In this document: piece by piece, positions 9,149 to 23,546 of the stretch
Position numbering within the stretch: position 1 is the first letter of the stretch
Layout of the letters: each line of letters opens with the position of its first letter
Sequence record: MT944117.1
Origin: Escherichia phage PNJ1809-36
Reading direction: 5' to 3' (one strand)
Length of the DNA stretch: 64,000 nucleotides
Translations under genes and position numbers: made by a program
Notes under the pieces: model-generated
What the model was told of the DNA's origin: nothing
Databases searched by the model: none
Seen by the model: the letters and a program-made list of their open reading frames with translations, nothing else

Positions 9149-9356
9149 TTACAACCTCCTTAATAGCTACTGCACAGTTCTTACAAATACATTGACCTTT
9201 GTTCTTAGAAATTTCAATGTAAGGTTCATTTTCGTTTTCTCCGCGTCGTGAGTCGTATATTACTGTATTGAAGCAGACAACGCAAATGTTTTTAATAACG
9301 ACATATTTTTGCACTTTCTGTTTAGTGCGAAAATTGACTTCAATGACTTCTCCCAT
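9126..9356 (-). CDS. hypothetical Cys-rich small protein (about 76 aa)
   Basis: ORF track 9126..9404 trimmed to internal ATG whose start overlaps the upstream stop (TGATG); CVVC...CICKNC. Confidence 0.4.
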   Translation of the reverse strand: MGEVIEVNFRTKQKVQKYVVIKNICVVCFNTVIYDSRRGENENEPYIEISKNKGQCICKNCAVAIKEVVNENAWDQ

Positions 9357-9640
9357 CAATGAATCTCCCCTAAAATGTTGTTTTGAGACATTACTGCGGA
9401 GCATTCTACAGCATCATGAGTCCTTGCAAAACGCTCCCACAACACAGCATCTACTTTAAGAACCATACAAGGATAAATACTGTCGTTGATCATGTCAATG
9501 CTATATTTATCTACATCCTTTTCATCTTCCATAAACAAAGTAGCGTATGCTTCTAAATGCTTACGGGTGTAGTATACATCCTCTTCAGTAAGACCGACAA
9601 CCAGGTAACTTGCTACAACAACAGTATTATCTTCTTGCAT
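9356..9640 (-). CDS. hypothetical protein (about 94 aa)
   Basis: ORF track 9356..9703 trimmed to ATG at 9638-9640 with AAGGGGAG SD just after the hydrolase stop. Confidence 0.4.
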   Translation of the reverse strand: MQEDNTVVVASYLVVGLTEEDVYYTRKHLEAYATLFMEDEKDVDKYSIDMINDSIYPCMVLKVDAVLWERFARTHDAVECSAVMSQNNILGEIH

Positions 9641-9641
9641 T

Positions 9642-10163
9642 TTAACTCCCCTTTGGTAGATAGAAACCATGCACTTTATCTCGATAAACAAGACGCATAT
9701 CACGTTCCCAGTGTGTTCTTATATTCCGTTTCTTGAAGTATAGAGCACCTTTAGTAACATCTAAAACAGACCGCAATTCAGGAAAATGTTTCTCTAAATA
9801 AAGTAAACGCTCCGCTATTGCTTTTGCTTCCTGCCATTTATCTTTCTCTGTTACGTTAAAAGTTTTCGCATATGAGAATTGCCCTTTCTGGAACAAGACT
9901 CCTCTGACTGTGTTAGGGAAGTAGGTATCATTTCTTCTGTTGATTACCACATTCCCAACGGCATTCATTCCTTTTTTACCCAGACCGCGACCTTCTGCGT
10001 AAATTGCACAAGCTAATAGAATTTTATCATTATATTGCTTTGTACATTTGTGAACTACTTTAGCGGTTTTTACGTTTGCAGCTTCGGCTTTCGCCACAAC
10101 AGGTGTAAATGTAAAAGCAGTTAAGGATAGTAACGCAACTGTTACAAAGTTTTTTATCAGCAA
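9642..10163 (-). CDS. secreted cell-wall hydrolase, SleB/CwlJ-like (candidate endolysin)
   Basis: 173 aa; signal peptide (MLIKNFVTVALLSLTAFTFTPVVAKA); ACAIYAEGRG...AVGNVVINR matches the Hydrolase_2 N-terminal signature; TTG start with AAAAGGAGG SD. Confidence 0.6.
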   Translation of the reverse strand: MLIKNFVTVALLSLTAFTFTPVVAKAEAANVKTAKVVHKCTKQYNDKILLACAIYAEGRGLGKKGMNAVGNVVINRRNDTYFPNTVRGVLFQKGQFSYAKTFNVTEKDKWQEAKAIAERLLYLEKHFPELRSVLDVTKGALYFKKRNIRTHWERDMRLVYRDKVHGFYLPKGS

Positions 10164-10195
10164 ATTTTGCCTCCTTTTTAAGTTAACGAATTTCT

Positions 10196-10224
10196 AGTAT
10201 AACACGATAGAGGCTTTATTGCAA
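10196..10224 (-). promoter_or_regulatory. sigma70-like promoter for hydrolase gene (TTGCAA-17-TATACT)
   Basis: Minus-strand read TTGCAAtaaagcctctatcgtgtTATACT about 30 nt upstream of the TTG start. Confidence 0.5.
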
Positions 10225-10244
10225 GAGGGGGATTTCTCCCCCTC
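10225..10244 (-). other. perfect 8-bp GC hairpin between TerD stop and hydrolase promoter
   Basis: gagggggaTTTCtccccctc; no U-tract on either strand, so not a canonical intrinsic terminator. Confidence 0.4.
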
Positions 10245-10262
10245 AAAATCATTTGTTAATTA

Positions 10263-10865
10263 TTACGGACATTCATACCATTCTTTTTTACCACCAAAGG
10301 CCATCACCACATCACAAATATCCAGACCAGCTTTACCTACACCATATGCTTTCAGCTTCCATTCCCCATCTTCACGAACCAAGGAAGCCACGTGGCAGAT
10401 TGTGTTGCCAGCTACTTCAGGAGCCAGGAAGTCAAAATCCAGAATTTCCACATTGCGCTCGGAGTCGAAGATTTTAAGCATACCTTCAGAAGCATGACCA
10501 AAACGTTTCAGACCTGTATCATCATCAATGGTCAGAACAAAGGCAATCTCTTGTGCATCAGGAGAGATTTTAGCCAGAGTAATATCAATCTGCTCCATGC
10601 TGCCAGTTCCATCACGAACATCGTCACCAGCGAAGGTAGAACGTTCAGGATCAAACTTGTTAGCATAGCAAACCAGATGACGTGCAGACAGCATTTCAGG
10701 ATTGCCAGCGGCATTGTGACGACAAACCAGTGCACTTACATCCAGATCTAGTTTAGAATCAGATTTCCAAGAGAATTCCAGGCGCAGTTCTTTCAGAGCC
10801 GGAGCAACTTTCTTCAGGGAAATTTTTTCGCTAGAGCCTTTTTTCAGGGAAATTTTATCAGTCAT
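10263..10865 (-). CDS. TerD-family protein
   Basis: 200 aa; N-terminal ISLKKG...ISLKK and GDDVRDGTGSMEQI Ca-binding-like motif typical of TerD/TerE/TerZ. Confidence 0.7.
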   Translation of the reverse strand: MTDKISLKKGSSEKISLKKVAPALKELRLEFSWKSDSKLDLDVSALVCRHNAAGNPEMLSARHLVCYANKFDPERSTFAGDDVRDGTGSMEQIDITLAKISPDAQEIAFVLTIDDDTGLKRFGHASEGMLKIFDSERNVEILDFDFLAPEVAGNTICHVASLVREDGEWKLKAYGVGKAGLDICDVVMAFGGKKEWYECP

Positions 10866-10880
10866 TTTTTGTCTCCTCTA

Positions 10881-11150
10881 TTATTTAAGTGTAATACCAG
10901 TTACAGTCAATTCTACTTCCAAAAGCTTAGATGTGTTTTGGATTGATACTAATTGTGCATGATGGTTTAGTTCTACAGCAGAATAATCATTTTCCCCATC
11001 ATCTACTTTTAAATAAACAATGATTTCACTAAGGTCTAAACCATTTTCGTCAAATGCATTTTCATAGACGAAAGTATCTCCTACATCCAAATCTTTAATG
11101 GTAAGGCATCGTTTATTTACTTTTTGCTCATCAATTTCGAAGTTTAACAC
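10881..11150 (-). CDS. small protein, paralog family A (89 aa)
   Basis: GTG start with GGAGGAAGAA SD; paralog of 12172..12450 (shared DLDVG-TF-Y, C-terminal L-x-VT-x-ITLK). Confidence 0.5.
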   Translation of the reverse strand: MLNFEIDEQKVNKRCLTIKDLDVGDTFVYENAFDENGLDLSEIIVYLKVDDGENDYSAVELNHHAQLVSIQNTSKLLEVELTVTGITLK

Positions 11151-11379
11151 TTCTTCCTCCTAATGTTATCTCCGGTTTGTATATACGAAGAATTATAGCA
11201 TTTTCATTTTCTTTGTCAACCCATTCTTCATAATCAGGCCATACATGAATCTCTACTCTACTTACAATATCTTCCATTCGCACAGTCCCAATGAAATACT
11301 CTTTGAGACTGCGTATAATGAAAGCTTCTCTCTCGCGCCAATAATTTTCTATGACTTGAGAGGCAAGCTCGTCGATCAT
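11131..11379 (-). CDS. hypothetical protein (82 aa)
   Basis: ORF track; start overlaps vWA stop. Confidence 0.45.
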   Translation of the reverse strand: MIDELASQVIENYWREREAFIIRSLKEYFIGTVRMEDIVSRVEIHVWPDYEEWVDKENENAIILRIYKPEITLGGRSVKLRN

Positions 11380-12170
11380 TTTTTAGCACCTACTTTAACA
11401 ACCCACTCTCCGAACTCTTCAGATAAGAGTTTGTCATAAAGCTCTGAATCTGTCAAGTCTAAATCTTTAATGCCAATAAAACCAACATTATCATAAGCAT
11501 TTGCCAGTTCTTTCAGGAAGCCAAACTTCTCATTACCAACGCCAACCATGAACCAATAAATAGGTTTATTCTTATTCTCTTCGATAAGACGACGAACAGC
11601 ACTAGGATCACCATTCTCACCATCAGTCTGGAAGAATACAACACCAGGGGTAACGTCAGCACCTGGTTCAGATACAGCTACAACTTTTTCACGCTCTACA
11701 GACACTGTTTCAGTTTTACCAAGCAGACGATTAAAGAAGCCTTTCTTTGGAGCCTCCTCTTGTACCACTTGTTTAGTGGTAATATATTTAGTAACAGTGC
11801 CAAAATACTCATCGTAGATATCTGCCATTACAGGGGCGTAATTTGTTCCACCTCCGATACGAACATTACGCATACATTTACCAACATAATCGTCGTAAAC
11901 ATTTGCTGTTGCTGGAGTAAGCTCTTGGGAACTCGTATTGAAGGCCCACATATCAATTTGTTGATTATCGTCGAACAGCATACCAAAAGGAAGCAGTTTA
12001 CCTACAAAATCACTCACTACCCCACTAGAATATAGACCATGCATACTACCAGAAATATCTAGAGCACATGCTACACGAAGAACAATCTTACCTTCATTCA
12101 GGTTCTTATTCTTTTTCAGAGAGAAAGCAAGGTTTTCTTGACGTTTTTTCAGGCTGATTTTCTCGGACAT
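11376..12170 (-). CDS. von Willebrand factor A domain protein (TerY-like)
   Basis: 264 aa; MIDAS DISGSM, FFQTDGENG; N-terminal ISLKK repeat as in TerD proteins. Confidence 0.6.
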   Translation of the reverse strand: MSEKISLKKRQENLAFSLKKNKNLNEGKIVLRVACALDISGSMHGLYSSGVVSDFVGKLLPFGMLFDDNQQIDMWAFNTSSQELTPATANVYDDYVGKCMRNVRIGGGTNYAPVMADIYDEYFGTVTKYITTKQVVQEEAPKKGFFNRLLGKTETVSVEREKVVAVSEPGADVTPGVVFFQTDGENGDPSAVRRLIEENKNKPIYWFMVGVGNEKFGFLKELANAYDNVGFIGIKDLDLTDSELYDKLLSEEFGEWVVKVGAKK

Positions 12171-12171
12171 A

Positions 12172-12450
12172 TTATTTCTCCTTCTTAAGTGTAATATTGG
12201 TAACTTCTAAATCTACTTCCACCATATTTGTATCTGGTGGGATGCAATGAGTATAGCCTCGTTGTGCTAGTGATCCATTAATACAAATCGCACTGTTTGT
12301 GGAATTTTTAATGAACACCAAGTTACGGTAGGTATCCAACCCTGCGTCTTCATAGGCATCATAATACATGAATGTGGCCCCTACGTCAAGATCTTCGAAA
12401 GCAATAGGTAAATCCTGACTTTTTTCTTCTTGAATATTGAATCTAAACAC
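12172..12450 (-). CDS. small protein, paralog family A (about 92 aa)
   Basis: ORF track 12172..12516 trimmed to GTG with GAGGAGG SD overlapping upstream stop; paralog of 10881..11150. Confidence 0.45.
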   Translation of the reverse strand: MFRFNIQEEKSQDLPIAFEDLDVGATFMYYDAYEDAGLDTYRNLVFIKNSTNSAICINGSLAQRGYTHCIPPDTNMVEVDLEVTNITLKKEK

Positions 12451-13006
12451 ACATACCTCCTCTACCAATTTTGAAGCCCAAATCGTAAGCTTCCTTAGTG
12501 ATCTTTTGTAACTCACTTATAGGAAGTGTTACAAGAGGATCATCTTCTTCAATTTCCATCTTGTCATCTTCTGTTTCAATGAGAGTATTATGCACTTTGT
12601 GATAAGGGTTGTCAACACGTTTAAACTTATTCTTTTCTGTGCTGAAAAAACAATCTGGATCTTCTTCACCATCACCCCAACCTTGGTTAGGATCTCCGTC
12701 AGATTGTTCTGTAGGGATTTCACCTGTAAAGTACTCTTCCAGCACCATAGCGATACCGTCCCTTGGATTTGAGGAATGCATCAAATCACAAACCTTACCC
12801 CAATCCATAGCCCATTCGAACCGTTCACGAACGCCGTTTTCATCCTCCTTTCCAGAGAAAACACAACCATAACTATCATAGTTGCCATACATCTCTTCAA
12901 TAACAACACCGTCCTTCAAAAGAAAGAGATAACAAGGTGATCCGTCGAAAGAAGTAGAAAGGGCAGCTTTGCCCGATTCTTTGCACAAAAAGCTAAAACA
13001 ACCCAT
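12443..13006 (-). CDS. hypothetical acidic protein (187 aa)
   Basis: ORF track; AGGAGG SD. Confidence 0.5.
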   Translation of the reverse strand: MGCFSFLCKESGKAALSTSFDGSPCYLFLLKDGVVIEEMYGNYDSYGCVFSGKEDENGVRERFEWAMDWGKVCDLMHSSNPRDGIAMVLEEYFTGEIPTEQSDGDPNQGWGDGEEDPDCFFSTEKNKFKRVDNPYHKVHNTLIETEDDKMEIEEDDPLVTLPISELQKITKEAYDLGFKIGRGGMCV

Positions 13007-13404
13007 TACAAACCCTCCTTCAGATTATCAAGAGCTACAGTGGTTTCACAAAATTCTCCATAAGCTTTATGATGTTCCAGAAAAGCTTCGGGTCCACCCC
13101 AGTCATTATCTTGTGTATTCCAGCCATCAATAAAAGCATCTTCAATGATTGTGATCAGTTCCTGTCGAGTCAACGTAATGGTATCAGGTTTCTGCGTAGT
13201 TTCCACACGGAACCCTGGTTCTTCATAAAAACCTTTAGTTACAATGGATTCTAACTCTTCTGCATCACAGAGGAAGTAGCCACAAAGATAACACCAACCG
13301 TCACCATCTTTCATTACTTCATAAACTTCACCACTTGCTAACTTGGTGAAAAGAGTAGGGTCTGTTACTGTAAGTTTTAAAAGAATACCTGTTGGATTAT
13401 ACAT
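13006..13404 (-). CDS. hypothetical protein (132 aa)
   Basis: ORF track; AGGAGGAAGAAG SD. Confidence 0.5.
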   Translation of the reverse strand: MYNPTGILLKLTVTDPTLFTKLASGEVYEVMKDGDGWCYLCGYFLCDAEELESIVTKGFYEEPGFRVETTQKPDTITLTRQELITIIEDAFIDGWNTQDNDWGGPEAFLEHHKAYGEFCETTVALDNLKEGL

Positions 13405-13570
13405 CTTCTTCCTCCTCTAAAATATGGAACCCGTAATTACAATAATCCTGAAAGGTTTCGTGTGCAAGATCTTCTATATCTTCTTGAGACATATCATCTT
13501 CAATTTCGATATCTACAACCTCATTGCATCCACACCAAGCAGTTTCAATATTCACTCGTAATATTTTCAT
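13397..13570 (-). CDS. hypothetical small acidic protein (57 aa)
   Basis: Manual translation MKILRVNIETAWCGCNEVVDIEIEDD...; start and stop overlap neighbouring genes; below ORF-track cutoff. Confidence 0.35.
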   Translation of the reverse strand: MKILRVNIETAWCGCNEVVDIEIEDDMSQEDIEDLAHETFQDYCNYGFHILEEEEDV

Positions 13571-13764
13571 TACTCCTCCTCATTGAAGTCAATATCTGCA
13601 AGGAGTTCGAATTTACGGAAGTTACGACAACCTTCATAAATATAACAATCACGACAAACTGCTAGAACACTTGGGGGATATATGCCTCCCATCGGTGCGA
13701 ATCGTTTTTCGTCATCATAACGGACACCAATGTCTTCATCAATTATATAGATACGGATTCTCAT
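13570..13764 (-). CDS. hypothetical protein (64 aa)
   Basis: ORF track; overlaps TelA-like stop. Confidence 0.4.
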   Translation of the reverse strand: MRIRIYIIDEDIGVRYDDEKRFAPMGGIYPPSVLAVCRDCYIYEGCRNFRKFELLADIDFNEEE

Positions 13765-14873
13765 TTACCAAGCCCTCGTTTCACAGCAGCTACCATCCCG
13801 TCTTCCAGAGATTGAACTTCATTAATATAATCAACACGAGCAGCACGGGCTTCCGTATTGATGCGGTTAGTTTCTTCCAACATCTTAACCAAGTTTTCCT
13901 GATCGTGACGCAGAGTTTCAATATCCAACACTTGACGGTTAGCCAGTGCTGCTGCTTCGATCTGATTCTGTGTGGCAAGATCGCTACCCAGTTTAATTGC
14001 CAGGTTAAATTCATCAAGAACGTTATTCTGCGTCTCTGCTGCTTTCATTTGACGTAAGCTCTCGATATACATTGAGAAGTTAGCAGAGTAAGCAGGAATA
14101 ACATTATTTACTATGTTACGCGCAGATCGCATTAAGCTTGCAGAAACTTTTTGCATACCTTGTACACGCGGTCCCATTTGGACACACAGTAGGCGCAATG
14201 CTTTTAAATCTGCAATACGAATCTCCAGAAGATCCAAAGTATCTCGGATCACTTGTCGCTGTTCTACTGCATCTTCTGGAAGAGCAGCCAAAGCTTGTTC
14301 TTCTTTTTCATAGGTTGCTGTTAGAAGCTGCATATCTCGGTTCAAACTTGCAGCATATTGTCCAATAGCTTGATGTAGCTTTTCAAGATATACCAAGGAA
14401 TCTTCTTCTTTGCGAATATCCATTTGAAGGTTCTTTACCAACTCTTCAATACGGTTATTAACATTATCAAACTCCCCAAACAGATCTTCTTTCATACCCA
14501 TAACTTTTTTAATGAGTTTAGTAATACCCTTGCTTTGTTTAATAGAGTTTGGATCAAGTTGTTTTGCCTGTTTAATCAAAGCTGTGAGTCGTTCACTCAT
14601 CTGATCGCCTTGATTACTACGTTGATGTTTTAATACCTCGGCATTCAAGGAACGCAAGGTTGTTCCTGCCTCTGCCCCAATCTCTTCAATCTCTTGTCGG
14701 GTCATAGAAGGCAAAACTGGAACTTCTTGCGGTGCCGCTGGTGCATAAACAGGACTGGCATCTAACACGCTTGGAGCGAATACAGATTTACTTGCATCGG
14801 TTGTTGCAGCAAATACGCTCATTTCAGGCTTCTTCTGACCACCAGTAGCTGCTTTTAAAAATGGACTTGTCAT
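13761..14873 (-). CDS. TelA/KlaA-like toxic-anion-resistance family protein (tentative)
   Basis: 370 aa, mostly predicted coiled-coil, size and position between TerD and TerC fit TelA; no diagnostic motif verified. Confidence 0.45.
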   Translation of the reverse strand: MTSPFLKAATGGQKKPEMSVFAATTDASKSVFAPSVLDASPVYAPAAPQEVPVLPSMTRQEIEEIGAEAGTTLRSLNAEVLKHQRSNQGDQMSERLTALIKQAKQLDPNSIKQSKGITKLIKKVMGMKEDLFGEFDNVNNRIEELVKNLQMDIRKEEDSLVYLEKLHQAIGQYAASLNRDMQLLTATYEKEEQALAALPEDAVEQRQVIRDTLDLLEIRIADLKALRLLCVQMGPRVQGMQKVSASLMRSARNIVNNVIPAYSANFSMYIESLRQMKAAETQNNVLDEFNLAIKLGSDLATQNQIEAAALANRQVLDIETLRHDQENLVKMLEETNRINTEARAARVDYINEVQSLEDGMVAAVKRGLGK

Positions 14874-15460
14874 TCTTCATTCTCCTCTTCTGCATCTCTT
14901 ATATATGGTGAAACACCGTACTCTTTAGCTACTTTAACCCAATCGTCCCATTTATACAACCATAATTTTCCTTCGGTCCCTTCTTTATCTGATTTCAACC
15001 ACATATTAGGTTGCTTACCTGGGTGCATGCGATTAGGTTTACGATTATAACCTCTAACACATCTTGTCGCAAACCTATCTACCAGAACAAGAACATATTT
15101 ATATTCGTGGTTCAACGGCTCTTTGGAAGTGGCTTTAGGATTAGCCCCTAATTCTGCTGCCAGTTTTTGCCAATGAGCACCGTGCCTACTAAACTTACCC
15201 ATACAACCATCAATAGCATGAGCAATTTCGTGCTTCATTGTATCCACGATCATATCTCTTGTGGAGTTCTTATGCAAGTGCCAATTTACAACAACAATTT
15301 TATCTCGGTAGTTGCACCAACCGAAAGAGTTATTCACTTTGTTTCTAACACAAGCTTTATATCCTGCTTCACGTAACATGTTGTAGTAAACAGGAAAATC
15401 TTCTTTTATTTCCTGCATCACTTCCCACCACAAGAGTTGCAAGTCTCTCTCGGTATACAT
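14870..15460 (-). CDS. SprT-like zinc metalloprotease domain protein
   Basis: 196 aa; HEIAHAIDG (HExxH) followed by HGAHW. Confidence 0.55.
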   Translation of the reverse strand: MYTERDLQLLWWEVMQEIKEDFPVYYNMLREAGYKACVRNKVNNSFGWCNYRDKIVVVNWHLHKNSTRDMIVDTMKHEIAHAIDGCMGKFSRHGAHWQKLAAELGANPKATSKEPLNHEYKYVLVLVDRFATRCVRGYNRKPNRMHPGKQPNMWLKSDKEGTEGKLWLYKWDDWVKVAKEYGVSPYIRDAEEENEE

Positions 15461-15463
15461 AAC

Positions 15464-16057
15464 TTACACCTTAAAAGTGAAATGCGTGGTCGTGGCTTCA
15501 AAATCAGGGCCAGATAAACGTGCACTGAAATCTGAAATATTTGTAATTAAAAAGCTTTTATGCATACCTAACACAGCCACGCTTTCAATATCTTCTACTA
15601 ACATTTCAATCATGTTAGAAACATGGCTGAACGTAGAGTTTTGTTTTTTGATGGTGTAGAAAGAAAGATTCCCACCTGCTGTATAAGATACCTCTTCAAA
15701 ATCTTTAATCGTATATTGTGTACCATCAGTAAAGAAAATGGTAGCTTTATTAGTAGCACGTTTCTTGTTTTTTGGTCCTTTTTTACGTTTACTGCGAGTA
15801 GGCAAACCGTTTGGGAACACCGTAGCTACAAATTCTTCAGGGGAAACCTCCTTACCGAAATCATAATCGTAAGAAACAGCGTCTATACACTCGTCGTCTT
15901 CATTTTTAAAATAATGAAAATAGGGCCAATTTGAGAGATTATCGAGCATCTTATGCGCATCCACAACAGAGAACGTATCCCTCAAAGCACGTGTGATTTG
16001 CAAAGCATTAGGCAAACTTTTAACACCTGTAATGGAAGTACGAATAGAAATTGTCAT
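15464..16057 (-). CDS. hypothetical protein (197 aa)
   Basis: ORF track; AAGGAG SD; lysine-rich patch KRKKGPKNKKR. Confidence 0.5.
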   Translation of the reverse strand: MTISIRTSITGVKSLPNALQITRALRDTFSVVDAHKMLDNLSNWPYFHYFKNEDDECIDAVSYDYDFGKEVSPEEFVATVFPNGLPTRSKRKKGPKNKKRATNKATIFFTDGTQYTIKDFEEVSYTAGGNLSFYTIKKQNSTFSHVSNMIEMLVEDIESVAVLGMHKSFLITNISDFSARLSGPDFEATTTHFTFKV

Positions 16058-16071
16058 TGTTTTTCTCCTTA

Positions 16072-16509
16072 TTAACGTCGCTTGCTACGAGATGAACTCT
16101 TTTTACTTAAAGGGCTATTGTAAGATTTACGAGTTGTATAGCTACTATTTGTTTTAAAAGTTTGTCTCGGCTTTTCATAAGTTTTTATCTCTTGTTTAGG
16201 CTTACCATAAAAATTAGTTTTCGGTTTAGGTGTATTATAATGCTTATTAATAATCGTTCTGTTATCGTTATAATCCCCACTGCTACGATTACTACCACCA
16301 CTCATCATATGCCCTAACAACATACCTGTAGCAAACTCACCAACACCGCTACTACTAGAACCGCCACCATTGTTGATAATAGTTGTATCTCCGTCAGATC
16401 CTTGTTGAGCGTATTGTTGAGGAGGTTGTTGGTATTGTGCAGGATTTGTTTCATCCTCGCAAGCTGTTAAAAAGATACAACCAATTAAAATCAGGGCTAG
16501 TTTTTTCAT
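16072..16509 (-). CDS. lipoprotein (Gly/Ser-rich)
   Basis: ORF track trimmed to ATG with GAGGA SD; MKKLALILIGCIFLTAC has a lipobox (LTAC). Confidence 0.5.
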   Translation of the reverse strand: MKKLALILIGCIFLTACEDETNPAQYQQPPQQYAQQGSDGDTTIINNGGGSSSSGVGEFATGMLLGHMMSGGSNRSSGDYNDNRTIINKHYNTPKPKTNFYGKPKQEIKTYEKPRQTFKTNSSYTTRKSYNSPLSKKSSSRSKRR

Positions 16510-16696
16510 ATTTGCTTTCCTCATTTTGACTATTAATACATCTGTGTTTGAAATCTCCAGAGAAGCAATAAAGTTGCTCTCCATCTCGGTATAAACTCAC
16601 TTTACTGCCGTTGATTACGCTTGTCAATACAAAAATTACAACAAACAACCCTATTGCAAAACAAATATTTTCAAACACAACCAACAAGTATTTCAT
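16451..16696 (-). CDS. possible small membrane protein (81 aa)
   Basis: ORF track; hydrophobic N-terminus; 3' part overlaps lipoprotein gene. Confidence 0.25.
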   Translation of the reverse strand: MKYLLVVFENICFAIGLFVVIFVLTSVINGSKVSLYRDGEQLYCFSGDFKHRCINSQNEESKYEKTSPDFNWLYLFNSLRG

Positions 16697-17043
16697 TTTA
16701 AAAATACCTCATCATCAGTCTCATTATCCCAGAAGAACAAATCCCAACCATTCGGATCATTCCATTTGGCTGCTGGAGAAGTCCATATTTGTTCGATATC
16801 AATATTCAAAACTTCACCGTTTCGTTTTGAAACAGCTTTAGTTAATTCCCAACGAGATACAGGCTCTACTTCCCCTGAACCACTCCCACAACAAGCTACC
16901 ACGTTAGGAGGCAAATTAATTGGATCTTTGGTCACGATCATAACGCTTACCCCAGGGTAAACTTTTGAAAGATAATCTAAAACGTAATCCACATCACCAG
17001 ATAAATCCCAAACAAGTTCTTGAATTTCATCAAAATTATTCAT
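16693..17043 (-). CDS. hypothetical protein (116 aa)
   Basis: ORF track; AGGAGAG SD. Confidence 0.5.
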   Translation of the reverse strand: MNNFDEIQELVWDLSGDVDYVLDYLSKVYPGVSVMIVTKDPINLPPNVVACCGSGSGEVEPVSRWELTKAVSKRNGEVLNIDIEQIWTSPAAKWNDPNGWDLFFWDNETDDEVFLK

Positions 17044-17053
17044 AAGTCTCTCC

Positions 17054-17079
17054 TATAAAATAGCCTCCCGAAGGAGGCT
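17054..17079 (-). terminator. intrinsic terminator after TerC
   Basis: Minus-strand gagccTCC-UUCG-GGAggcu followed by AUUUUAU. Confidence 0.5.
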
Positions 17080-17085
17080 CATCTA

Positions 17086-18060
17086 TTAAACAGCAGCTTC
17101 TTCTTTTTCAGGGAAGATAAAGCTTGCAATAACACCAAGAGCTAATGTGCCTAGAACAATCATCAGACTTACGTTAGGGGAAATATCATGCGGGAGGAAT
17201 GACCACTTGGCATGAAGTGTTTCACCGAACGGGTGATACATAAGTTTAGCACCAACAAACACCAGAACCACAGCAACAGCTTTCTCTAAGTGAACCAGAT
17301 ATTTCACAGCTACACTTAACACAAAGAAAAGTGCACGTAAACCAAGAACAGCCATCAGCATTGCAGAATAAACTAGCAGAGGTTCTTGTGTCACACCGAT
17401 CACAGCCGGAACTGAATCAAAAGAGAAGACAATATCTGTAAGCTCAATAACAAACACACAAAGAATAGCAGGAGTTGCATATTTAATACCATTCTTAATG
17501 GTGATGAACTTTTCACCATCCAGTGCATTGTGCACAGGCAGAACTTTACCTACTAAACGAACAGCCCAATGCTTAGAGTAATCAATATCCTCTTCTTCGT
17601 CACCACCTTTGATGATAGCCACGGCAGACCAAGCTACAATCAAACCGAACAACACTTGGACCGACCAATGAAGGTTAAACAAAGCGGTCCCTGCTGCAAC
17701 AAAAATACCTCGGAAGACAATGGCTCCTGCAATCCCCCAAAGTAAAATCTTATGTTGGAGATGTGTGCTCTTAATTCCAAAGCTTGCAAAAATTGCCATG
17801 AACACCATCAGGTTATCTACAGAAAGACTCTTTTCCAACACATAGCCACTTAGGAAAAGCGCGGCAAACTCTTTACCATGTTCTACCCAAATGAATGCGT
17901 AATATCCTAAAGCTAAAGCAATCCAAAAAACAGACCAAAGCAAAGCAGATTTAATTCCAATTTCTTTATTCTCTTTGTGACCAAAGAAATCAATACCAAT
18001 AGACAATGCTAAAATACCAACTAAAACAACTACATCAATAATTGGGAAACCAAGTTGCAT
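17086..18060 (-). CDS. TerC-family integral membrane protein
   Basis: 324 aa, multi-pass hydrophobic; LEKSLSVDN and FSFDSVPAV match the two TerC DN/DS motifs. Confidence 0.7.
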   Translation of the reverse strand: MQLGFPIIDVVVLVGILALSIGIDFFGHKENKEIGIKSALLWSVFWIALALGYYAFIWVEHGKEFAALFLSGYVLEKSLSVDNLMVFMAIFASFGIKSTHLQHKILLWGIAGAIVFRGIFVAAGTALFNLHWSVQVLFGLIVAWSAVAIIKGGDEEEDIDYSKHWAVRLVGKVLPVHNALDGEKFITIKNGIKYATPAILCVFVIELTDIVFSFDSVPAVIGVTQEPLLVYSAMLMAVLGLRALFFVLSVAVKYLVHLEKAVAVVLVFVGAKLMYHPFGETLHAKWSFLPHDISPNVSLMIVLGTLALGVIASFIFPEKEEAAV

Positions 18061-18077
18061 TCTTTTCTCCTCTCTTT

Positions 18078-18136
18078 GCGGGGAACTATTCCCCGCTTCA
18101 TGTGATATATCTTACTCTTTTTAAGAACTATGTCAA
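18078..18136 (-). promoter_or_regulatory. promoter plus leader-hairpin cassette driving TerC (TTGACA-16-TAAGAT, hairpin gcggggaaTAGttccccgc)
   Basis: Same architecture as the rightward cassettes at 40.3-50 kb, on the minus strand. Confidence 0.55.
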
Positions 18137-18139
18137 CAC

Positions 18140-18361
18140 TTATTTTGTTGAATGAGAGGAAAAGATTCCTCGTAATACAGCCAGAATAAACGAAACACAA
18201 ACCACGGTCCAGAAGGTTACTGGGACAGTGATATCTGCATGACCCATAACTTCAGCAACATAGTTGTAAGCCAGCAACAGTAACCAAGCTGGAATCAAAC
18301 TAAGCATAAAAGCAATAACAAAAAAGCTTACCACTGCAACAATACCTGCAAAAACACCCAT
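18140..18361 (-). CDS. small membrane protein (73 aa)
   Basis: ORF track; two hydrophobic segments; GAGGAG SD. Confidence 0.45.
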   Translation of the reverse strand: MGVFAGIVAVVSFFVIAFMLSLIPAWLLLLAYNYVAEVMGHADITVPVTFWTVVCVSFILAVLRGIFSSHSTK

Positions 18362-18373
18362 ACTAATCTCCTC

Positions 18374-18847
18374 TTAAAGTTTATAAATAGTCACATCGTG
18401 ACCTGTTTTTACTAAAGTTTCTTCAATCATCACTTGGATGATAGCCCAATTACCTCCAGCATATCCAGCGCCAATCATAGGTAAGCCGATCTTACATTTT
18501 TGGTCACGGAGAAGCAAATCGTTAGCCATAGCTATTAGTGCATCGTAAAGTGCATCATAGTCCAACTGACGACCTTTAGCATTGTATCCGTAACGGTATT
18601 GCCCGTATAGATTATATACCAAAGGGTCTGATTGTTCGTCTGGCACCCCTAAACTAAAACAACCTAGTTTACTTTGATCACCAGCCATTGTGTCTAAGTC
18701 TGCTGCATATGCGTAAGGAAATGCTTGTTTGATTTGTGGGGCAATACCTGCCCCCATATTACACATACAGTTGCAACAATGAGCAATAACAGTTACTTCA
18801 CCTGCTTTAGCGGCATCAATAAGATTACCTGTTTTCATTTTAAGCAT
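18374..18847 (-). CDS. macro-domain-like protein
   Basis: ORF track trimmed to ATG with AAGGAG SD right after PRTase stop; GNLIDAAKAGEVTVIAHCCNC...GAGIA and KIGLPMIGAGYAGG resemble the macro-domain N- and C-terminal motifs. Confidence 0.5.
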   Translation of the reverse strand: MLKMKTGNLIDAAKAGEVTVIAHCCNCMCNMGAGIAPQIKQAFPYAYAADLDTMAGDQSKLGCFSLGVPDEQSDPLVYNLYGQYRYGYNAKGRQLDYDALYDALIAMANDLLLRDQKCKIGLPMIGAGYAGGNWAIIQVMIEETLVKTGHDVTIYKL

Positions 18848-18860
18848 TTTTAGCTCCTTA

Positions 18861-19688
18861 TTACAGAATGTGTTGTTTTGTGTAACGATCCAAGAATTCA
18901 AAGTTTTCAGCATACTTTGAAATTCGGTTGTAACCTTCTCCCAAGCATCCAAAGAAAAGTTGCTCTACATAGTAATGTGGCAATTGGCTAAGAATGATTT
19001 TGAAGTCTTCATGATTTTGGCCCATAAGATACTTAATAGGACGAACAAGACACTGTGCATCACGTTCTTCATTAATCATTTTAACAAACGCTTCTGGTGT
19101 ATTAATGTAGTTAAAATTCAGTTTAGCTTCGGTATCTGCTTGATTACCTTCGTATTTTGCAAAATACAAGAAGTAAACATCATTTTTAACTTGATTTTCA
19201 TCAAGGATCTCAATCAGTTTGTCTTCATGCGTTCCAGTGATATTTACATCATCAATGAATACAAGCTTCTTATCACCCCAGAATTCTTTGTTACAGTAGA
19301 ATGTATCCCCATCAATAAGTTTCTTACGACTAGCTTTATCCAAGAAACCATAATCGTTGATATAGCTAACTTTACGATGAATAATGTCCAGTTCTGCTGA
19401 ACGACCTTGATCATATTGTGCTTGCAACATATTAAAGTAATTAATAAAATGATCTGTCATCATTGTTGCAGCATTATGCACATGGTTGTAAGGAGAAGGA
19501 ATGATAACAAATTGTTCCCCAATATGTTTCATTGCCACTTGAGCAAAAAACTGAAGTGCCAATTCTTTACCCATACGACGCGCGGCTTGGTTACTACCAA
19601 ATTTCAATTTTGAATAATCTTGGATATCAAAAGTAGCAGTTTCCAGGTCATCAAATTTATTTGCAAAAATTTGAGTTTGATTACGCAT
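18861..19688 (-). CDS. phosphoribosyltransferase (PRTase) domain protein
   Basis: 275 aa; type I PRTase PRPP-binding motif KLVFIDDVNITGTHED. Confidence 0.6.
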   Translation of the reverse strand: MRNQTQIFANKFDDLETATFDIQDYSKLKFGSNQAARRMGKELALQFFAQVAMKHIGEQFVIIPSPYNHVHNAATMMTDHFINYFNMLQAQYDQGRSAELDIIHRKVSYINDYGFLDKASRKKLIDGDTFYCNKEFWGDKKLVFIDDVNITGTHEDKLIEILDENQVKNDVYFLYFAKYEGNQADTEAKLNFNYINTPEAFVKMINEERDAQCLVRPIKYLMGQNHEDFKIILSQLPHYYVEQLFFGCLGEGYNRISKYAENFEFLDRYTKQHIL

Positions 19689-20337
19689 TTACAATTTCTC
19701 CTCTTTTAAGTTTCTCTAGTAAGTCGTTAGGGTTCTTAATATGACAGAAGTTAAATCCTAAGTCAACACATTTTCCATCATATTCTTCACTATCGCCTAC
19801 GTGCAATACTTCGTGCCCTAACAGAGGGATCGGAGAATACGTGAGCGTGCGAGCAAAGAATCGCGGATCTGGTTTACAAAGTAAAGCTTCATCCGAGAAA
19901 TGGGTGAACTCAAAACAATTCCAACTATCAAACTTACAAGCACGACGCAGGATATCCCCTGATATAAAGTTGGTATTGCTCTTAATACTCAAATCATAAC
20001 GTCCCGAAAGATACAGCAAGTACATCGGCAGATCCACGGCTACGTGTGGTGGAAACTTAAGGAACCACTGTTCACACTCGAAACGAAGCTTTGCAGACTT
20101 CCAAGGTGTTATCCCAAGTTCAGAACCAAGTCTTTCCCAGGCGTATGCTGCACACTCGGCTTTGCCTTGAAGTGCTGCATTATCCAGTTCCTTTTTGATC
20201 TTTTTATAAGCTGCTCTTGCTTCAACTTCCGTAATATCTCCATATTTTGCGATAGTCCAGGCTCGCATGTCTGCGTAATTGGAGTTTGCTGTGATCAGTG
20301 TGTTCCATACATCAAAAGAGATATGTTTAATAGTCAT
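19681..20337 (-). CDS. HAD-superfamily hydrolase (variant motif I)
   Basis: 218 aa; ISFDVWNTLI (second Asp replaced by Trp), KPDP, VLHVGDSEEYD. Confidence 0.55.
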   Translation of the reverse strand: MTIKHISFDVWNTLITANSNYADMRAWTIAKYGDITEVEARAAYKKIKKELDNAALQGKAECAAYAWERLGSELGITPWKSAKLRFECEQWFLKFPPHVAVDLPMYLLYLSGRYDLSIKSNTNFISGDILRRACKFDSWNCFEFTHFSDEALLCKPDPRFFARTLTYSPIPLLGHEVLHVGDSEEYDGKCVDLGFNFCHIKNPNDLLEKLKRGEIVNA

Positions 20338-20338
20338 A

Positions 20339-20944
20339 TTAAGCCCACCATGCGTCTAAGTTAAGATTACTGTCCACTACCACTTGTTCTATGTGGTAGC
20401 CTTTTATCTGTATCCCACTGTTCAAGAGCATATCATACGCTTCATTGAAACGCAACTTATCTTCTGCGGAATATAAGCGAGCATTATAAAATCGGTAATC
20501 AACTTCTTCAGCATTAGAAGAAATACGGAAGAAGTTTGTTTCTACTTCGGGATCACTTGCTGAAGTCTTAATGTGAACTTCTCCGTAATTTTCTTTACTT
20601 AGATCCATGAAAAGAACACAGGCAACATGTTTAAACATTCGTTCCAGTTTGTAACGAACAACATTGAAGCCTGCATTCTCAAGTTTTTCTACACACTGCA
20701 ACATTAAAGTAGTGTCGAGATCGCTTTGATACTTTGTTAACATACGATCACGTTGAGACTTTGTATCCCGATGTAAATCAATTGTTGTGCATTTGGCACC
20801 AATAATCTTAGCTGCTTTCATCAACTCTTCAGAACTAACGTTAGATAAAGTAAGATGAAAATGGGCTTTCCACACTTTTTTAGCAGGGACACCAAAAGAT
20901 TTATCCCCACTATTCGGCATGTTGACTACTACACTATGTTGCAT
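20339..20944 (-). CDS. hypothetical protein (201 aa) co-operonic with HAD/PRTase
   Basis: ORF track; GAGGAG SD. Confidence 0.5.
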   Translation of the reverse strand: MQHSVVVNMPNSGDKSFGVPAKKVWKAHFHLTLSNVSSEELMKAAKIIGAKCTTIDLHRDTKSQRDRMLTKYQSDLDTTLMLQCVEKLENAGFNVVRYKLERMFKHVACVLFMDLSKENYGEVHIKTSASDPEVETNFFRISSNAEEVDYRFYNARLYSAEDKLRFNEAYDMLLNSGIQIKGYHIEQVVVDSNLNLDAWWA

Positions 20945-20959
20945 TACTTATCTCCTCAC

Positions 20960-21151
20960 TTAAAATGGAAGTCTTTGAAGTTCATCTCCTCCGATATCAA
21001 GTAATTTAGCAACATCTCGATCAGAAAGCAACTCTTTTCTTTGTAAAATATCCACAAGGGTTGCAAGAATGTCCTTAACGTCCCGATCACTGTTCTTCAA
21101 AAGTTCTCCTGCCGTCCCTACCCTATCTCCTACAGCAAAATATGTAACCAT
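20960..21151 (-). CDS. hypothetical small protein (about 63 aa)
   Basis: ORF track trimmed to ATG with TAGGAGG SD. Confidence 0.35.
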   Translation of the reverse strand: MVTYFAVGDRVGTAGELLKNSDRDVKDILATLVDILQRKELLSDRDVAKLLDIGGDELQRLPF

Positions 21152-21164
21152 AAAACCTCCTAAG

Positions 21165-21635
21165 TTAATCTGATTGCCAACCACTTGCCGTTTTGGTCCA
21201 TAATCTTTGATTATCTGACCCTCTGAAAGGTTTTGTAGTTGGATTGTTTATTTCATACTTTCCGTCTACAATAATGTCAACAAGATTTTTAATATACAAA
21301 GGCACTTCCTCAAAAGTATATCCTGTATACACCATTATATCTTTGCTTGACCCATAAACGTCTCTAACCTTTTCTATAAGGTTTTTAACATTGTAAATAT
21401 TCTGCGGATCTAATGGCTCTCCTCCTAAAATTGTTAAACCTTTTACAAACGGTCTTGACAAATCTTTTAAAACTTGCTCTACATTTTCGTGAGTAAACGG
21501 TTTCCCATAAGAATAAGACCAAGCTTTTTGGTTAAAACAGCCACGACAACCGTGGCTACAACCACTAACCCAGAGGGAGCACCTAACTCCCTCACCATTA
21601 ATAAGATCTACAGGTTCATATCCTGCAAAATTCAA
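21165..21635 (-). CDS. nrdG: anaerobic ribonucleotide reductase activating protein (radical SAM)
   Basis: 156 aa; CSHGCRGC cluster, GGEPL; TTG start overlapping nrdD stop. Confidence 0.8.
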   Translation of the reverse strand: MNFAGYEPVDLINGEGVRCSLWVSGCSHGCRGCFNQKAWSYSYGKPFTHENVEQVLKDLSRPFVKGLTILGGEPLDPQNIYNVKNLIEKVRDVYGSSKDIMVYTGYTFEEVPLYIKNLVDIIVDGKYEINNPTTKPFRGSDNQRLWTKTASGWQSD

Positions 21636-23446
21636 AGATGTTTCTCCCTTTGCAAAACTTCCTGCATTTTACCTTTGTTGTAAGGCCGTGAATTAGGGGC
21701 AGAAAGATACCCTGATACACGTCTAACTACAGAAATAGTTTCTTCTTCATGGTTGCCACAATCAGGACACTCAAACCCTTTAGCCGTTGCCTTAAATTCT
21801 CCATGAAAACCACACTTAAAGCATTGATCCACGGGCTGATTAATACCAAAATAGTGAATATGTTCATAAGCGTAGTCTACTAAAGTCTCCAAAGCTTCTA
21901 AGTTATTCTTTAAGTTTGGTGTTTCGACATAACTTATGTTACCACCATTACTAATCTGTGCAAAACCTGCTTCATAATCCCATTTTTCAAAAGGATTTGT
22001 TACCAACCACACAGGTTGATGAAAAGAGTTAGTAAGATAGTCTCTTTCTACCAAACCTGGGTATTTTTCATTTAAAGCTGTTGCAAACTTATAGCACAAA
22101 GATTCTGCTGGAGTTCCATAGAGACTAAACGCCAACTTAGATCGTTCTTTAAACACAGCACACACATCTTTCATATGTTGCAGAATGTTTTTACCAAGTT
22201 CCTTTTTATCTTTTTCTTCTGGATAAAGGATTTCCAAAGCTTCGGCAAGACCTACATAACCAATACTAATAGAAGCATAACCACCTTCAAACAAAACACC
22301 AATTTCATCATTGGCATTTAAACGCGCTAAAGCCCCTTCCATGAAAAGAATAGGGTTTTCAGATGCTTTGGTATGTCTGATACGGTTTACACGTAGCATG
22401 TGAGCATCGTAGGCTATCTCCATATGTTTATTAAGGAGATCGGTGAAAGATTCTCCTTTACTTCTCGCTTCCGCAGCGATTAGAGGTAAGTTGATAGAAA
22501 CTACCCCAAGGTTGAATCGTCCATCGTATTTTTCTCCTTGTTCGGTGGCATAGTACGACAAAAAGGAACGACAACCCATACTCGTAACAGTACCCTCTGC
22601 TGATCCCGTAACTTCTTTGTTCAAAGGAACAGAAATAAAATCTGGATAAATACGATCAGCACAACATGCCAAAGCTTGTTGCTTAAGATCGTAGTTAGGA
22701 TCACCAGGTTTCATGTTAACACCTTCTTGTAAAAAGAAAATAACTTTAGGGAATACAGGCGTTACATGATCTTTGCCTAGACCGTTACTATGCACTTTAA
22801 GATAGTTAGCTGTGATCATTCTGCCAAAAACAGAGGTATCCAGACCCATACTGATTGTAATAAAAGGAGATTGTCCATTAACACTCATTAAAGTATTAAC
22901 CTGATACAAGAGAGTTTGCATAGCATCGTATACATCTTGTTCGGTCATTTCTAGGGCTTCTTTCCTTGCATAACAACCGTAGCGACGTTTGGTTATCTCC
23001 ATGTTTTTAAGGAAACTAGCTTCAACATAAGGACTAAGACCTTTATCAATGTGCGCACACGTCTGACCTCCATACTGACTGGAGGCAACAGCTTGGATGA
23101 TTTGAGTTAGCACTGTGGTAGCTACTCCAATAGATTTTGGTTTTTCTATCTGTGCAGCACCGATCTTAAAACCATTTTCTAACATATCTTGATAATTAAC
23201 AAGACAACAGTTTGTAAGAGGAGAGAGCAGATAATCCAAGTCGTGAATATGTCCAAAACCTTCTGTATGCCATTCTGACAAGTTTTTTGGCAGTATCTGT
23301 GTCATTGCCATATGTTTGCTTAAAATCCCCGCCAAGAGATCCCTATGCGTGTTAACGAGGTGGGAAGGTTTGTTTGCATTCTCTCTAGTGTATGTTTCTG
23401 AAGTGCGATCTAAAAAAGAAAAAACATCTTGGTACAAATCTTTCAT
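21632..23446 (-). CDS. nrdD: anaerobic ribonucleoside-triphosphate reductase (class III)
   Basis: 604 aa; C-terminal Zn ribbon CFKCGF...CPDCG and glycyl-radical motif RVSGYL. Confidence 0.85.
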   Translation of the reverse strand: MKDLYQDVFSFLDRTSETYTRENANKPSHLVNTHRDLLAGILSKHMAMTQILPKNLSEWHTEGFGHIHDLDYLLSPLTNCCLVNYQDMLENGFKIGAAQIEKPKSIGVATTVLTQIIQAVASSQYGGQTCAHIDKGLSPYVEASFLKNMEITKRRYGCYARKEALEMTEQDVYDAMQTLLYQVNTLMSVNGQSPFITISMGLDTSVFGRMITANYLKVHSNGLGKDHVTPVFPKVIFFLQEGVNMKPGDPNYDLKQQALACCADRIYPDFISVPLNKEVTGSAEGTVTSMGCRSFLSYYATEQGEKYDGRFNLGVVSINLPLIAAEARSKGESFTDLLNKHMEIAYDAHMLRVNRIRHTKASENPILFMEGALARLNANDEIGVLFEGGYASISIGYVGLAEALEILYPEEKDKKELGKNILQHMKDVCAVFKERSKLAFSLYGTPAESLCYKFATALNEKYPGLVERDYLTNSFHQPVWLVTNPFEKWDYEAGFAQISNGGNISYVETPNLKNNLEALETLVDYAYEHIHYFGINQPVDQCFKCGFHGEFKATAKGFECPDCGNHEEETISVVRRVSGYLSAPNSRPYNKGKMQEVLQREKHL

Positions 23447-23512
23447 TATTAATCCTTATTTTGTGAGTAGAACTATTATTCTACCTCTTCTAACCGAAAA
23501 AAGCTTTGAGGA

Positions 23513-23541
23513 AAATCAAAAAAGGCGCAAAGTGCGCCTTT
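23513..23541 (-). terminator. intrinsic terminator downstream of 472-aa gene
   Basis: Minus-strand aaaggcgca-CUU-ugcgccuuu followed by UUUUUUGAUUUU. Confidence 0.6.
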
Positions 23542-23546
23542 AAGTT

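Follow-up and report, generated by a model that had tools for sequence, protein, structure and literature searches.

A block of genes related to the bacterial tellurite-resistance (Ter) clusters occupies positions 10263 to 20944 of a 64,000-nt stretch of Escherichia phage PNJ1809-36 (MT944117.1; "the window" denotes this whole stretch). Comparison with other phages and with bacteria reduces its conserved unit to six families: a HAD hydrolase, a phosphoribosyltransferase (PRTase), TerD, a vWA protein, TelA and TerC. Taken together, these genes may constitute an abbreviated Ter system in a virulent phage, in which a riboside synthesised by PRTase and HAD serves as the ligand of a membrane complex of TerD, vWA, TelA and TerC, and this complex shields the infected cell against superinfection or damage to its envelope; we favour this reading while giving it slightly less than an even chance. 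The earlier note on this DNA, made from the letters alone, had joined eight families of the region into one candidate for an undescribed phage system. As shown below, the families are there; the unit proved to be smaller and the system not new.

The coupling of HAD and PRTase is obligate. The HAD gene stands directly upstream of the PRTase gene, on the same strand, in 30 of the 30 phage-type loci examined. A scan of bacteria with one genome per species found 55 loci, 52 of which have the same arrangement; in the other three the two enzymes are fused, in the same order, into one HAD-PRTase polypeptide. These fusions, from Flavobacterium and Bacteroidota metagenome-assembled genomes (MAGs), carry the HAD part at the N-terminus (L086, 2131-3780; L087, 9242-10828; L091, 9230-10588). 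They are about 530-550 aa long in L086 and L087, the L091 frame being shorter (453 aa), and in L087 the fusion is directly followed by TerC. Among phages, tblastn matches to the PRTase occur in 156 records, including Xanthomonas jumbo phage XaC1, Rhizobium phages, and Caulobacter and Brevundimonas jumbo phages.

This pair is recurrently linked to Ter genes. Outside the Stephanstirmvirinae, the subfamily to which PNJ1809-36 is assigned (see below), TerD, TerC, TelA or vWA directly flanks HAD-PRTase in 11 of about 21 phage lineages, in orders that differ from one lineage to another (TerD-HAD-PRT-vWA-TerC, TelA-HAD-PRT-vWA and TerC-x-TerD-x-vWA-HAD-PRT, for example). The vWA gene adjoins the pair in seven other phage-type loci, and TelA is also found near it in other phages and in Bacteroidota. 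When all open reading frames (ORFs) of 22 neighbourhoods were clustered, only HAD, PRTase, TerC, TerD, TelA and vWA recurred widely, RNA ligase and NAMPT being present in four loci each; the conserved unit is made up of these six families. In Bacteroidota, TerD (two to four copies), TelA or TerC lies within 10 kb of HAD-PRTase in 18 loci. The order in a Dysgonomonas cluster is three TerD genes, TelA, three vWA genes (one with TerY_C), PP2C, a kinase, HAD, PRTase_3 and a P-type cation ATPase. That orthologous pairs reside within such clusters agrees with the suggestion of the earlier note that the two enzymes belong to a Ter-associated biosynthetic family. Because both TerD and the PRTase are rare, a match to either occurring in about 0.3% of phage records, and yet are so often adjacent, a functional tie is hard to avoid.

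The closest records, 98-99% identical over the region, are phAPEC8, ETEC-TG, anhysbys and others, and on this basis the source phage is assigned to Phapecoctavirus (Stephanstirmvirinae) as a phage of the phAPEC8 type. By DNA comparison 104 phage records match the region, and in 61 of these 80% or more of it is present as a single piece. The comparison was extended by tblastn and phmmer, with all proteins of the window, to phi92 and a Klebsiella phage, and five IMG/VR contigs of the same subfamily were included. The order HAD, PRTase, macro-domain gene, small membrane gene, TerC, membrane gene plus lipoprotein gene, TelA, vWA, TerD, endolysin is kept in all seven Stephanstirmvirinae loci, with protein identities of 49-88% across phi92 and the Klebsiella phage. 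The earlier note had named conservation of gene order as a check on its proposal; given the 61 records that keep the region in one piece and the order retained in phi92 and the Klebsiella phage, the grouping of these genes cannot be put down to chance.

All 22 ORFs of the region are on the minus strand. They form part of a long leftward arm that comprises, in order, a UvrD-type helicase, nrdD, nrdG, the Ter genes, a SleB-type endolysin, four glycosyltransferases, a primase/helicase and DNA polymerase. The nrdG and nrdD genes (21165-23446) lie next to the Ter region, as had been claimed, an adjacency that is not kept outside the Stephanstirmvirinae; the glycosyltransferase genes, downstream of the Ter genes, are at about 5.9-8.9 kb in the window. 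Between genera the core is as highly conserved as these reductase genes, identities being 81% for TerD, 79% for TelA, 71% for TerC, 66% for vWA and 65% for the PRTase; the values for NrdD (two segments) and NrdG are 78-81% and 69%. Since a virulent phage conserves the six-gene core as well as its ribonucleotide reductase, it must gain from it within one infection cycle.

The identities of the proteins were established by profile searches (Table 1). Six of the families named in the earlier note score above their Pfam cut-offs, and the HAD and macro-domain proteins, which fall below, were recovered by PDB or PADLOC profile matches; the DISGS, LEKSLSVDN and HExxH motifs are all present in the translations. 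For the HAD protein (Pfam score 21.2 bits, cut-off 26.4) the assignment stands on the other searches, a profile of the phage homologues matching 2om6 (E 2e-15), HDHD3 and, weakly, the phosphoribose-phosphatase (PRP) domain of 7shg (E 4e-5). The alignments show the catalytic motifs of both enzymes to be intact. In the predicted hydrolase, motifs I-IV are all conserved (nucleophile D9, the Ser/Thr of motif II, K155 of motif III, D182/D187 of motif IV), and motif I always reads D-[VF]-W-[NK]-T, with Trp in place of the usual acid/base Asp of phosphatases at Asp+2; archaeal 2om6 has the same motif. In the PRTase, the loop predicted to bind phosphoribosyl pyrophosphate (PRPP), DDVxITGxHE, is invariant, and R105, S108, Y109 and D112 of the flexible loop are invariant or nearly so. 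Its AF2 model (pLDDT 93) consists of a type I PRTase core and a C-terminal helical domain, with HGXPRT/HGPRT and ComF as best fold matches. From this resemblance to purine-base PRTases and ComF, the acceptor would more likely be a heterocycle than a glycan.

Table 1. Predicted genes and signals in the Ter region of PNJ1809-36, in order of window position, with the evidence for each.
Feature	Position	Strand	Evidence
TerD-domain protein, 200 aa	10263-10865	-	PF02342, 98.9 bits (cut-off 25.3), E 3e-28; PDB 2kxt, E 1.5e-15
89-aa protein, paralogue of 12172-12450	10881-11150	-	phrog_11278, E 7e-45; restricted to close relatives
82-aa protein	11131-11379	-	phrog_22387; absent in phi92
vWA protein, TerF C-terminal type	11376-12170	-	PF10138 (vWA-TerF-like), 130.3 bits (cut-off 29.4), E 1e-37; MIDAS DISGS in translation
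92-aa protein, paralogue of 10881-11150	12172-12450	-	phrog_11278, E 4e-51; conserved in phi92
187-aa protein	12443-13006	-	phrog_14928; 76% identical in phi92, absent in Klebsiella phage
TelA-family protein, 370 aa	13761-14873	-	PF05816, 115.7 bits (cut-off 30), E 3e-33
SprT-like zinc metalloprotease, HEIAH (HExxH)	14870-15460	-	PF10263, 36.7 bits (cut-off 25.6), E 4e-9
145-aa lipoprotein, lipobox LTAC, Gln/Pro/Ser/Gly-rich tail	16072-16509	-	translation
81-aa membrane protein	16451-16696	-	translation; overlaps lipoprotein gene
Terminator-like GC hairpin with T-rich tail, directly after TerC stop codon	17079-17062	-	fold/pattern
TerC/Alx-type integral membrane protein, 324 aa	17086-18060	-	PF03741, 137.7 bits, E 5e-40; TIGR03718, 318.9 bits (cut-off 246.4); LEKSLSVDN
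TerC 5' stem-loop, 8-bp stem, just downstream of promoter-like site	18096-18078	-	dG -14.6, z -3.9
TerC promoter-like site, sigma-70-like, TTGACA-16-TAAGAT	18136-18109	-	pattern match
73-aa hydrophobic, probably membrane, protein upstream of TerC	18140-18361	-	translation; conserved in all Stephanstirmvirinae loci
Macro-domain protein, Poa1p/TARG1/DarG/SCO6735 class	18374-18847	-	PDB 5e3b, E 3.5e-12; PADLOC DarG, 4e-10; phrog_335 "phosphatase"
PRTase_3, ComF-like type I phosphoribosyltransferase	18861-19688	-	PF15610, 143.9 bits (cut-off 28.7), E 8e-42; PRPP loop IDDVNITGTHE
HAD hydrolase, motif I SFDVWNTL (Trp at Asp+2)	19681-20337	-	motif alignment; PDB profile match; 8-nt overlap with PRTase start
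201-aa protein, tandem ferredoxin-like fold predicted	20339-20944	-	AF2 model, pLDDT 83; no Pfam match

Across phi92 and the Klebsiella phage TerD is 81-86% identical, and TelA is 74-79% identical in the relatives; a search of the PDB by sequence gave no match for TelA. The PADLOC models for TerY did not match the phage vWA protein. TerC, by its TIGR03718 profile, is placed in the Alx ("metal homeostasis") subfamily. A recent capture of host alx was considered as its source and rejected, since a comparison with 5,426 E. coli genomes showed no similarity to the gene at the DNA level. The earlier note had also given TerC a promoter-hairpin cassette of its own, and at the level of sequence pattern this cassette is real. 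Among six Stephanstirmvirinae, five of the eight stem pairs show compensatory change with both sides altered, and 93.8% of cells are paired, compared with 56-72% in controls with slid partners. The stem is represented in these phages by GCGGGGAA, GCGGAGGA, AGAGGGAG and GGGAGAG variants. No Rfam family matches the stem-loop, and nothing in the window does so at gathering thresholds. A riboswitch upstream of TerC, suggested by Alx genes labelled "R_switched", was likewise discarded on the null result with Rfam and on a 5' untranslated region (UTR) of just about 45 nt with a simple hairpin.

How such a system might operate can be outlined from these features together with published predictions. 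The biosynthetic module of bacterial Ter systems consists of two or five enzymes, PRTase and HAD always among them, and is predicted to yield a ribonucleoside derived from a pyrimidine (PMC11994780, which summarises Anantharaman 2012); a nucleoside-like product is likewise the prediction for the phage enzymes (PMC7824862, PMC11994780). The six core genes would be transcribed during infection with the replication and nucleotide-metabolism arm, TerC additionally from its own promoter, its message having a stabilising 5' hairpin and a terminator. The PRTase would form a ribonucleoside 5'-monophosphate from PRPP and a heterocyclic base, and the HAD enzyme would strip its 5'-phosphate, leaving the nucleoside-like product. 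We infer that TerD, vWA and TelA gather with TerC at the inner face of the inner membrane, where the complex would sense this product and alter cation flux or the state of the membrane. The infected cell might in this way become refractory to a second insult, such as DNA entry by a superinfecting phage, pore-forming colicins, or metal or oxidative stress, until the phage finishes. Competition with superinfecting phages, that is superinfection exclusion, has been proposed as the role of phage Ter systems (PMC7824862), and in bacteria terC, terD and terZ are required for phage inhibition and colicin resistance, phage resistance dropping upon terC deletion (PMC12054061).

Several observations weigh against this interpretation. 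The window TerD does not have the canonical calcium motif GDN(R/L)TGEGDGDDE. The earlier note had described a TerD with a motif resembling a calcium-binding site; the family assignment holds, and the motif itself is largely lost, an alignment with the Klebsiella TerD structure 2kxt setting GDDVRDGTGSMEQ in the window against GDNRTGEGDGDDE, with several acidic positions replaced. TerB nearly always accompanies the bacterial biosynthetic module (PMC11994780), and a Pfam scan of 27 minus-strand ORFs from 9642 to 24965 gave no TerB match. No PADLOC defence model matches the phage TerD, vWA, TelA, TerC, PRTase or HAD proteins, which for the first four counts against the reading proposed here; the idea that the Ter proteins are catalogued defence genes was dropped on the same result. 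The base substrate of the PRTase cannot be read from its sequence. The function of phage ter genes in infection is called unknown in two reports (PMC11162368, PMC9796965), and the literature search found no experimental study of a phage Ter gene; from 2022 on, it found no paper joining TerD, anti-phage and tellurite. In addition, HAD-PRTase occurs with no Ter gene within 10-20 kb in XaC1, in Rhizobium phages, in seven Rhizobiaceae genome loci with full flanks and in two Rhizobiaceae plasmids (one of them pRL10), the same being true of CcrColossus and several contigs. A distance of 28-40 kb separates the pair from TerD in CcrColossus and vB_BpoS-Bambus, the two phages of phiCbK type that were compared, and across the three genomes compared (XaC1, Caulobacter, Brevundimonas) TerD is found elsewhere, 28-165 kb away.

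Judged from the Bacteroidota Ter clusters and from these lone pairs of Rhizobiaceae, the phage HAD-PRTase is orthologous to the Ter-linked bacterial pair, yet the pair is also able to travel alone. The lone pairs on Rhizobiaceae plasmids and chromosomes (pRL10, 8346-9819 of L034; 8370-9840 of L035; L043-L050) have a PRTase 37-41% identical to that of the phage, keep the SFDVWNTL motif and show no Ter genes within 10 kb. In XaC1 (14941-16527 of L005), HAD-PRTase is followed by a 528-aa DUF2828/DUF7788 protein in place of a Ter gene.

The lone pairs in Rhizobium plasmids and phages, in XaC1 and on several IMG/VR contigs are what would be expected if the region were a mosaic of independent accessory genes, in which the Ter genes act on the envelope, HAD-PRTase is self-contained (serving salvage or making a free metabolite), and the macro-domain, SprT-like and 201-aa genes have separate anti-defence or repair functions. 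That these last three genes are not co-conserved with the rest, and that homologues of the 201-aa protein turn up in unrelated contexts, fits as well. Independence is difficult to reconcile, however, with the 11 independent phage arrangements and 18 Bacteroidota clusters in which Ter genes abut HAD-PRTase, and we regard the mosaic as unlikely, though still to be taken seriously.

A second alternative is that the genes manage metals: the Alx-type TerC would export Mn2+ or another cation, or supply metal to exported proteins, and TerD, vWA and TelA would buffer or sense metal during replication beside the ribonucleotide reductases. It draws on the placement of TerC in a metal-homeostasis subfamily, on the Zn and Mn resistance conferred by K. 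pneumoniae terC (PMC12054061) and on the P-type cation ATPase directly after the PRTase in Dysgonomonas. The degenerate calcium site of TerD speaks against it, as do the lack of a Mn riboswitch upstream of TerC (Rfam) and the loss of the nrdDG adjacency outside the Stephanstirmvirinae; moreover, it leaves the nucleoside-making pair without a role. Metal management seems improbable as the task of the module.

The reading of the six genes as an abbreviated Ter system leaves three of their neighbours outside. Between the small hydrophobic protein upstream of TerC and the PRTase lies a macro-domain protein, with a Pfam score of 21.8 bits, just below the cut-off of 22. Its other matches include BT1257, TARG1 and DarG in the PDB (E 1e-5 to 3e-6 for TARG1 and DarG), and DarG models in NCBIfam too, so that a macro fold with an ADP-ribose binding site is predicted. 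None of the macro-domain, SprT-like and 201-aa genes recurs beside HAD-PRTase in the about 21 other phage lineages or the 55 bacterial loci; they are linked to the rest only within the Stephanstirmvirinae, and even there phi92 has neither the SprT-like nor the 201-aa gene. The eight families of the earlier note do not, in consequence, form one unit. Neighbourhood clustering ruled out the macro-domain gene as a member, since it adjoins HAD-PRTase in the Stephanstirmvirinae only, and the SprT-like gene is probably a lineage-specific neighbour outside the Ter unit.

The presence of a macro-domain gene nevertheless raises the possibility that it acts with PRTase and HAD in NAD/ADP-ribose counter-defence, the three repairing or removing, along the lines of NARP1-AP, ADP-ribose derivatives produced by host immunity. 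Poa1p-class macro proteins are ADPR-1''-phosphate (ADPR, ADP-ribose) phosphatases that defeat aRES defence (bioRxiv 10.64898/2026.01.28.702374), the window protein matches DarG models, and NAMPT or NMNAT genes are found near HAD-PRTase in some phages. Like NARP1-AP Adpp and the DarG/TARG1 hydrolases, the window protein belongs to the broad Poa1p/TARG1/DarG class; unlike them, it does not stand beside an Adps, Namat or DarT-like gene, and by sequence it is closest to SCO6735 (5e3b). Instead of the NARP1-AP layout, with the macro gene within two genes of Adps and Namat, its neighbours are PRTase_3 and a small hydrophobic protein, and neither Adps nor Namat is annotated in a close relative over the stretch covering the window. 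Since, furthermore, the macro gene keeps this position in a single subfamily, PRTase_3 is not of the NAMPT family and dephosphorylation of NMN would oppose the rebuilding of NAD, such a function appears very improbable. Hardly credible is a PRPP-dependent ribofuranosyl transferase-phosphatase that would alter a host envelope glycan with the four downstream glycosyltransferases: the HAD profile does match the phosphoribose-phosphatase domain of 7shg, whose class follows the same HAD and PRT logic with the domains in the same order (PMC11127046), a feature also of the fused bacterial proteins, and glycosyltransferase genes are nearby, but these genes are not linked to HAD-PRTase in other lineages, the HAD protein is nearer to 2om6 and HDHD3, and the PRTase has no similarity to the glycan PRT domain and matches nucleobase PRTases.

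A role of the PRTase as a glycan PRT was accordingly rejected, its profile failing to match 7shg and its fold matches being HGPRT and ComF. The ribofuranosyl transferases transfer phosphoribose from PRPP and then remove the 5'-phosphate (PMC11127046). This two-step logic, the HAD-then-PRT order and the weak HAD similarity (E 4e-5) are shared with the phage pair, whereas the phage transferase domain is unrelated by sequence. Compared with bacterial Ter clusters (terZABCDEF, telA, PRTase plus HAD; PMC7824862, PMC11994780), the phage has TerD, TerC, TelA, a TerF-type vWA, the PF15610 PRTase and HAD, that is, the two-enzyme form of the module. It lacks TerB, the TerZ/A/E paralogues, the ATP-grasp and TIM-barrel enzymes and the TerY-P triad (TerY vWA, PP2C and Ser/Thr kinase). 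The Pfam scan of the region detected neither PP2C nor kinase, whereas the bacterial locus L058 has the triad. The phage module further differs in its single TerD with a degenerate calcium motif, in an Alx-subtype TerC with its own promoter and hairpin, and in being carried by a virulent phage inside the replication arm.

Comparative genomics and GenBank annotation had already brought phage modules of this kind to light, and the view of the earlier note that the system is undescribed has to be given up. Phage Ter systems including PRTase and HAD have been described in Acinetobacter jumbo phage ME3, Caulobacter jumbo phages and "related smaller tailed phages" (Iyer et al. 2021, PMC7824862, section 3.4.10), and ter genes have been noted in phi92-like phages (PMC11162368), phiPsa374 (PMC9796965) and phiKp34 (PMC8386662); GenBank records already carry labels for the genes of the module. 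All of these represent the same kind of module with the same families and no essential difference, phi92 being a direct relative with the same order. What is added here is the invariant HAD-to-PRTase order with its fusions, the variety of arrangements among lineages, the restriction of the macro, SprT-like and 201-aa genes to one lineage, and the conserved hairpin 5' of TerC.

Of the remaining neighbours, the 201-aa protein is matched by two PADLOC "AbiEi" models with E values of about 1e-13, one of them (PDLC02277, E 3.6e-13) over nearly its full length. An AbiEi protein is expected to carry an N-terminal winged helix; in the AF2 model this element is missing, and beta-alpha-beta units stand in tandem. 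No PDB match was found by sequence, and no convincing fold match with the model. Numerous His, Lys, Arg and Glu residues of the protein are invariant, several of them at alternate positions (H28/H30/T32, R97/K99/E101, E122/H124/K126). Distant homologues occur in other phage contexts, one of them (36% identical) in L038, where an Acb1 (anti-CBASS) gene directly follows it. The gene is best taken as separate and possibly as an anti-defence gene. In every Stephanstirmvirinae locus TerC is bordered by three small genes for hydrophobic proteins or lipoproteins, two of them being the membrane protein/lipoprotein pair found downstream of it in all these loci. The overlapping layout of this 81-aa/145-aa pair recalls two-component spanins; the membrane protein has no obvious coiled coil. 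The two phrog_11278 paralogues lie immediately upstream of TerD (89 aa) and of vWA (92 aa). The sigma-70 consensus is matched best in the region at 11219-11192 (12/12, with an extended -10) and 12615-12587 (11/12), 42 and 137 nt upstream of the start codons of these paralogues.

Some features of the surroundings and of the database records may be mentioned. In the window nrdD is a single intact ORF of 604 aa (21632-23446); in phi92 it is interrupted (9218-11296 of the phi92 locus) and is annotated there as two ORFs with a spliced variant. Between nrdD and the 472-aa gene upstream, a GC-rich hairpin formed by a perfect 9-bp palindrome and accompanied by T-runs on both strands (23521-23541) has the look of a bidirectional terminator. 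A 13-kb contig in a "Proteobacteria bacterium" MAG bin (L040) is 99% identical to this phage, and the records of Campylobacter phage B15 and Acinetobacter phage ABPW7 are 98-99% identical to it in DNA over the region. That of Campylobacter phage C3 matches at the level of phi92 (TerD 81%, PRTase 65% protein identity). Records MG065650.1, MG065656.1 and OP562383.1 concern B15, C3 and ABPW7. The host labels of the MAG contig and of these three phages are likely to be errors or to reflect contaminating phages.

The value of the present analysis lies in an experimental entry point and in a clearer delimitation of the genes that make up the unit, and not in novelty. Ter clusters, widespread among pathogens, have been tied since 1995 to tellurite, phage and colicin resistance; to our knowledge, the nucleoside-like metabolite predicted for them has never been found. 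It is conceivable, though rather unlikely, that the riboside made by HAD-PRTase is the switch of the phage TerD/vWA/TelA/TerC membrane device, a form of small-molecule control by which the host would be sealed against rival phages and toxins. If this were true, the phage would offer the simplest handle yet on the metabolite predicted for Ter since 2012, because its cassette comprises just two genes, sometimes fused, and comes from a phage of E. coli. Phages of the phAPEC8 and phi92 types provide a compact, genetically tractable system for the study of Ter function.

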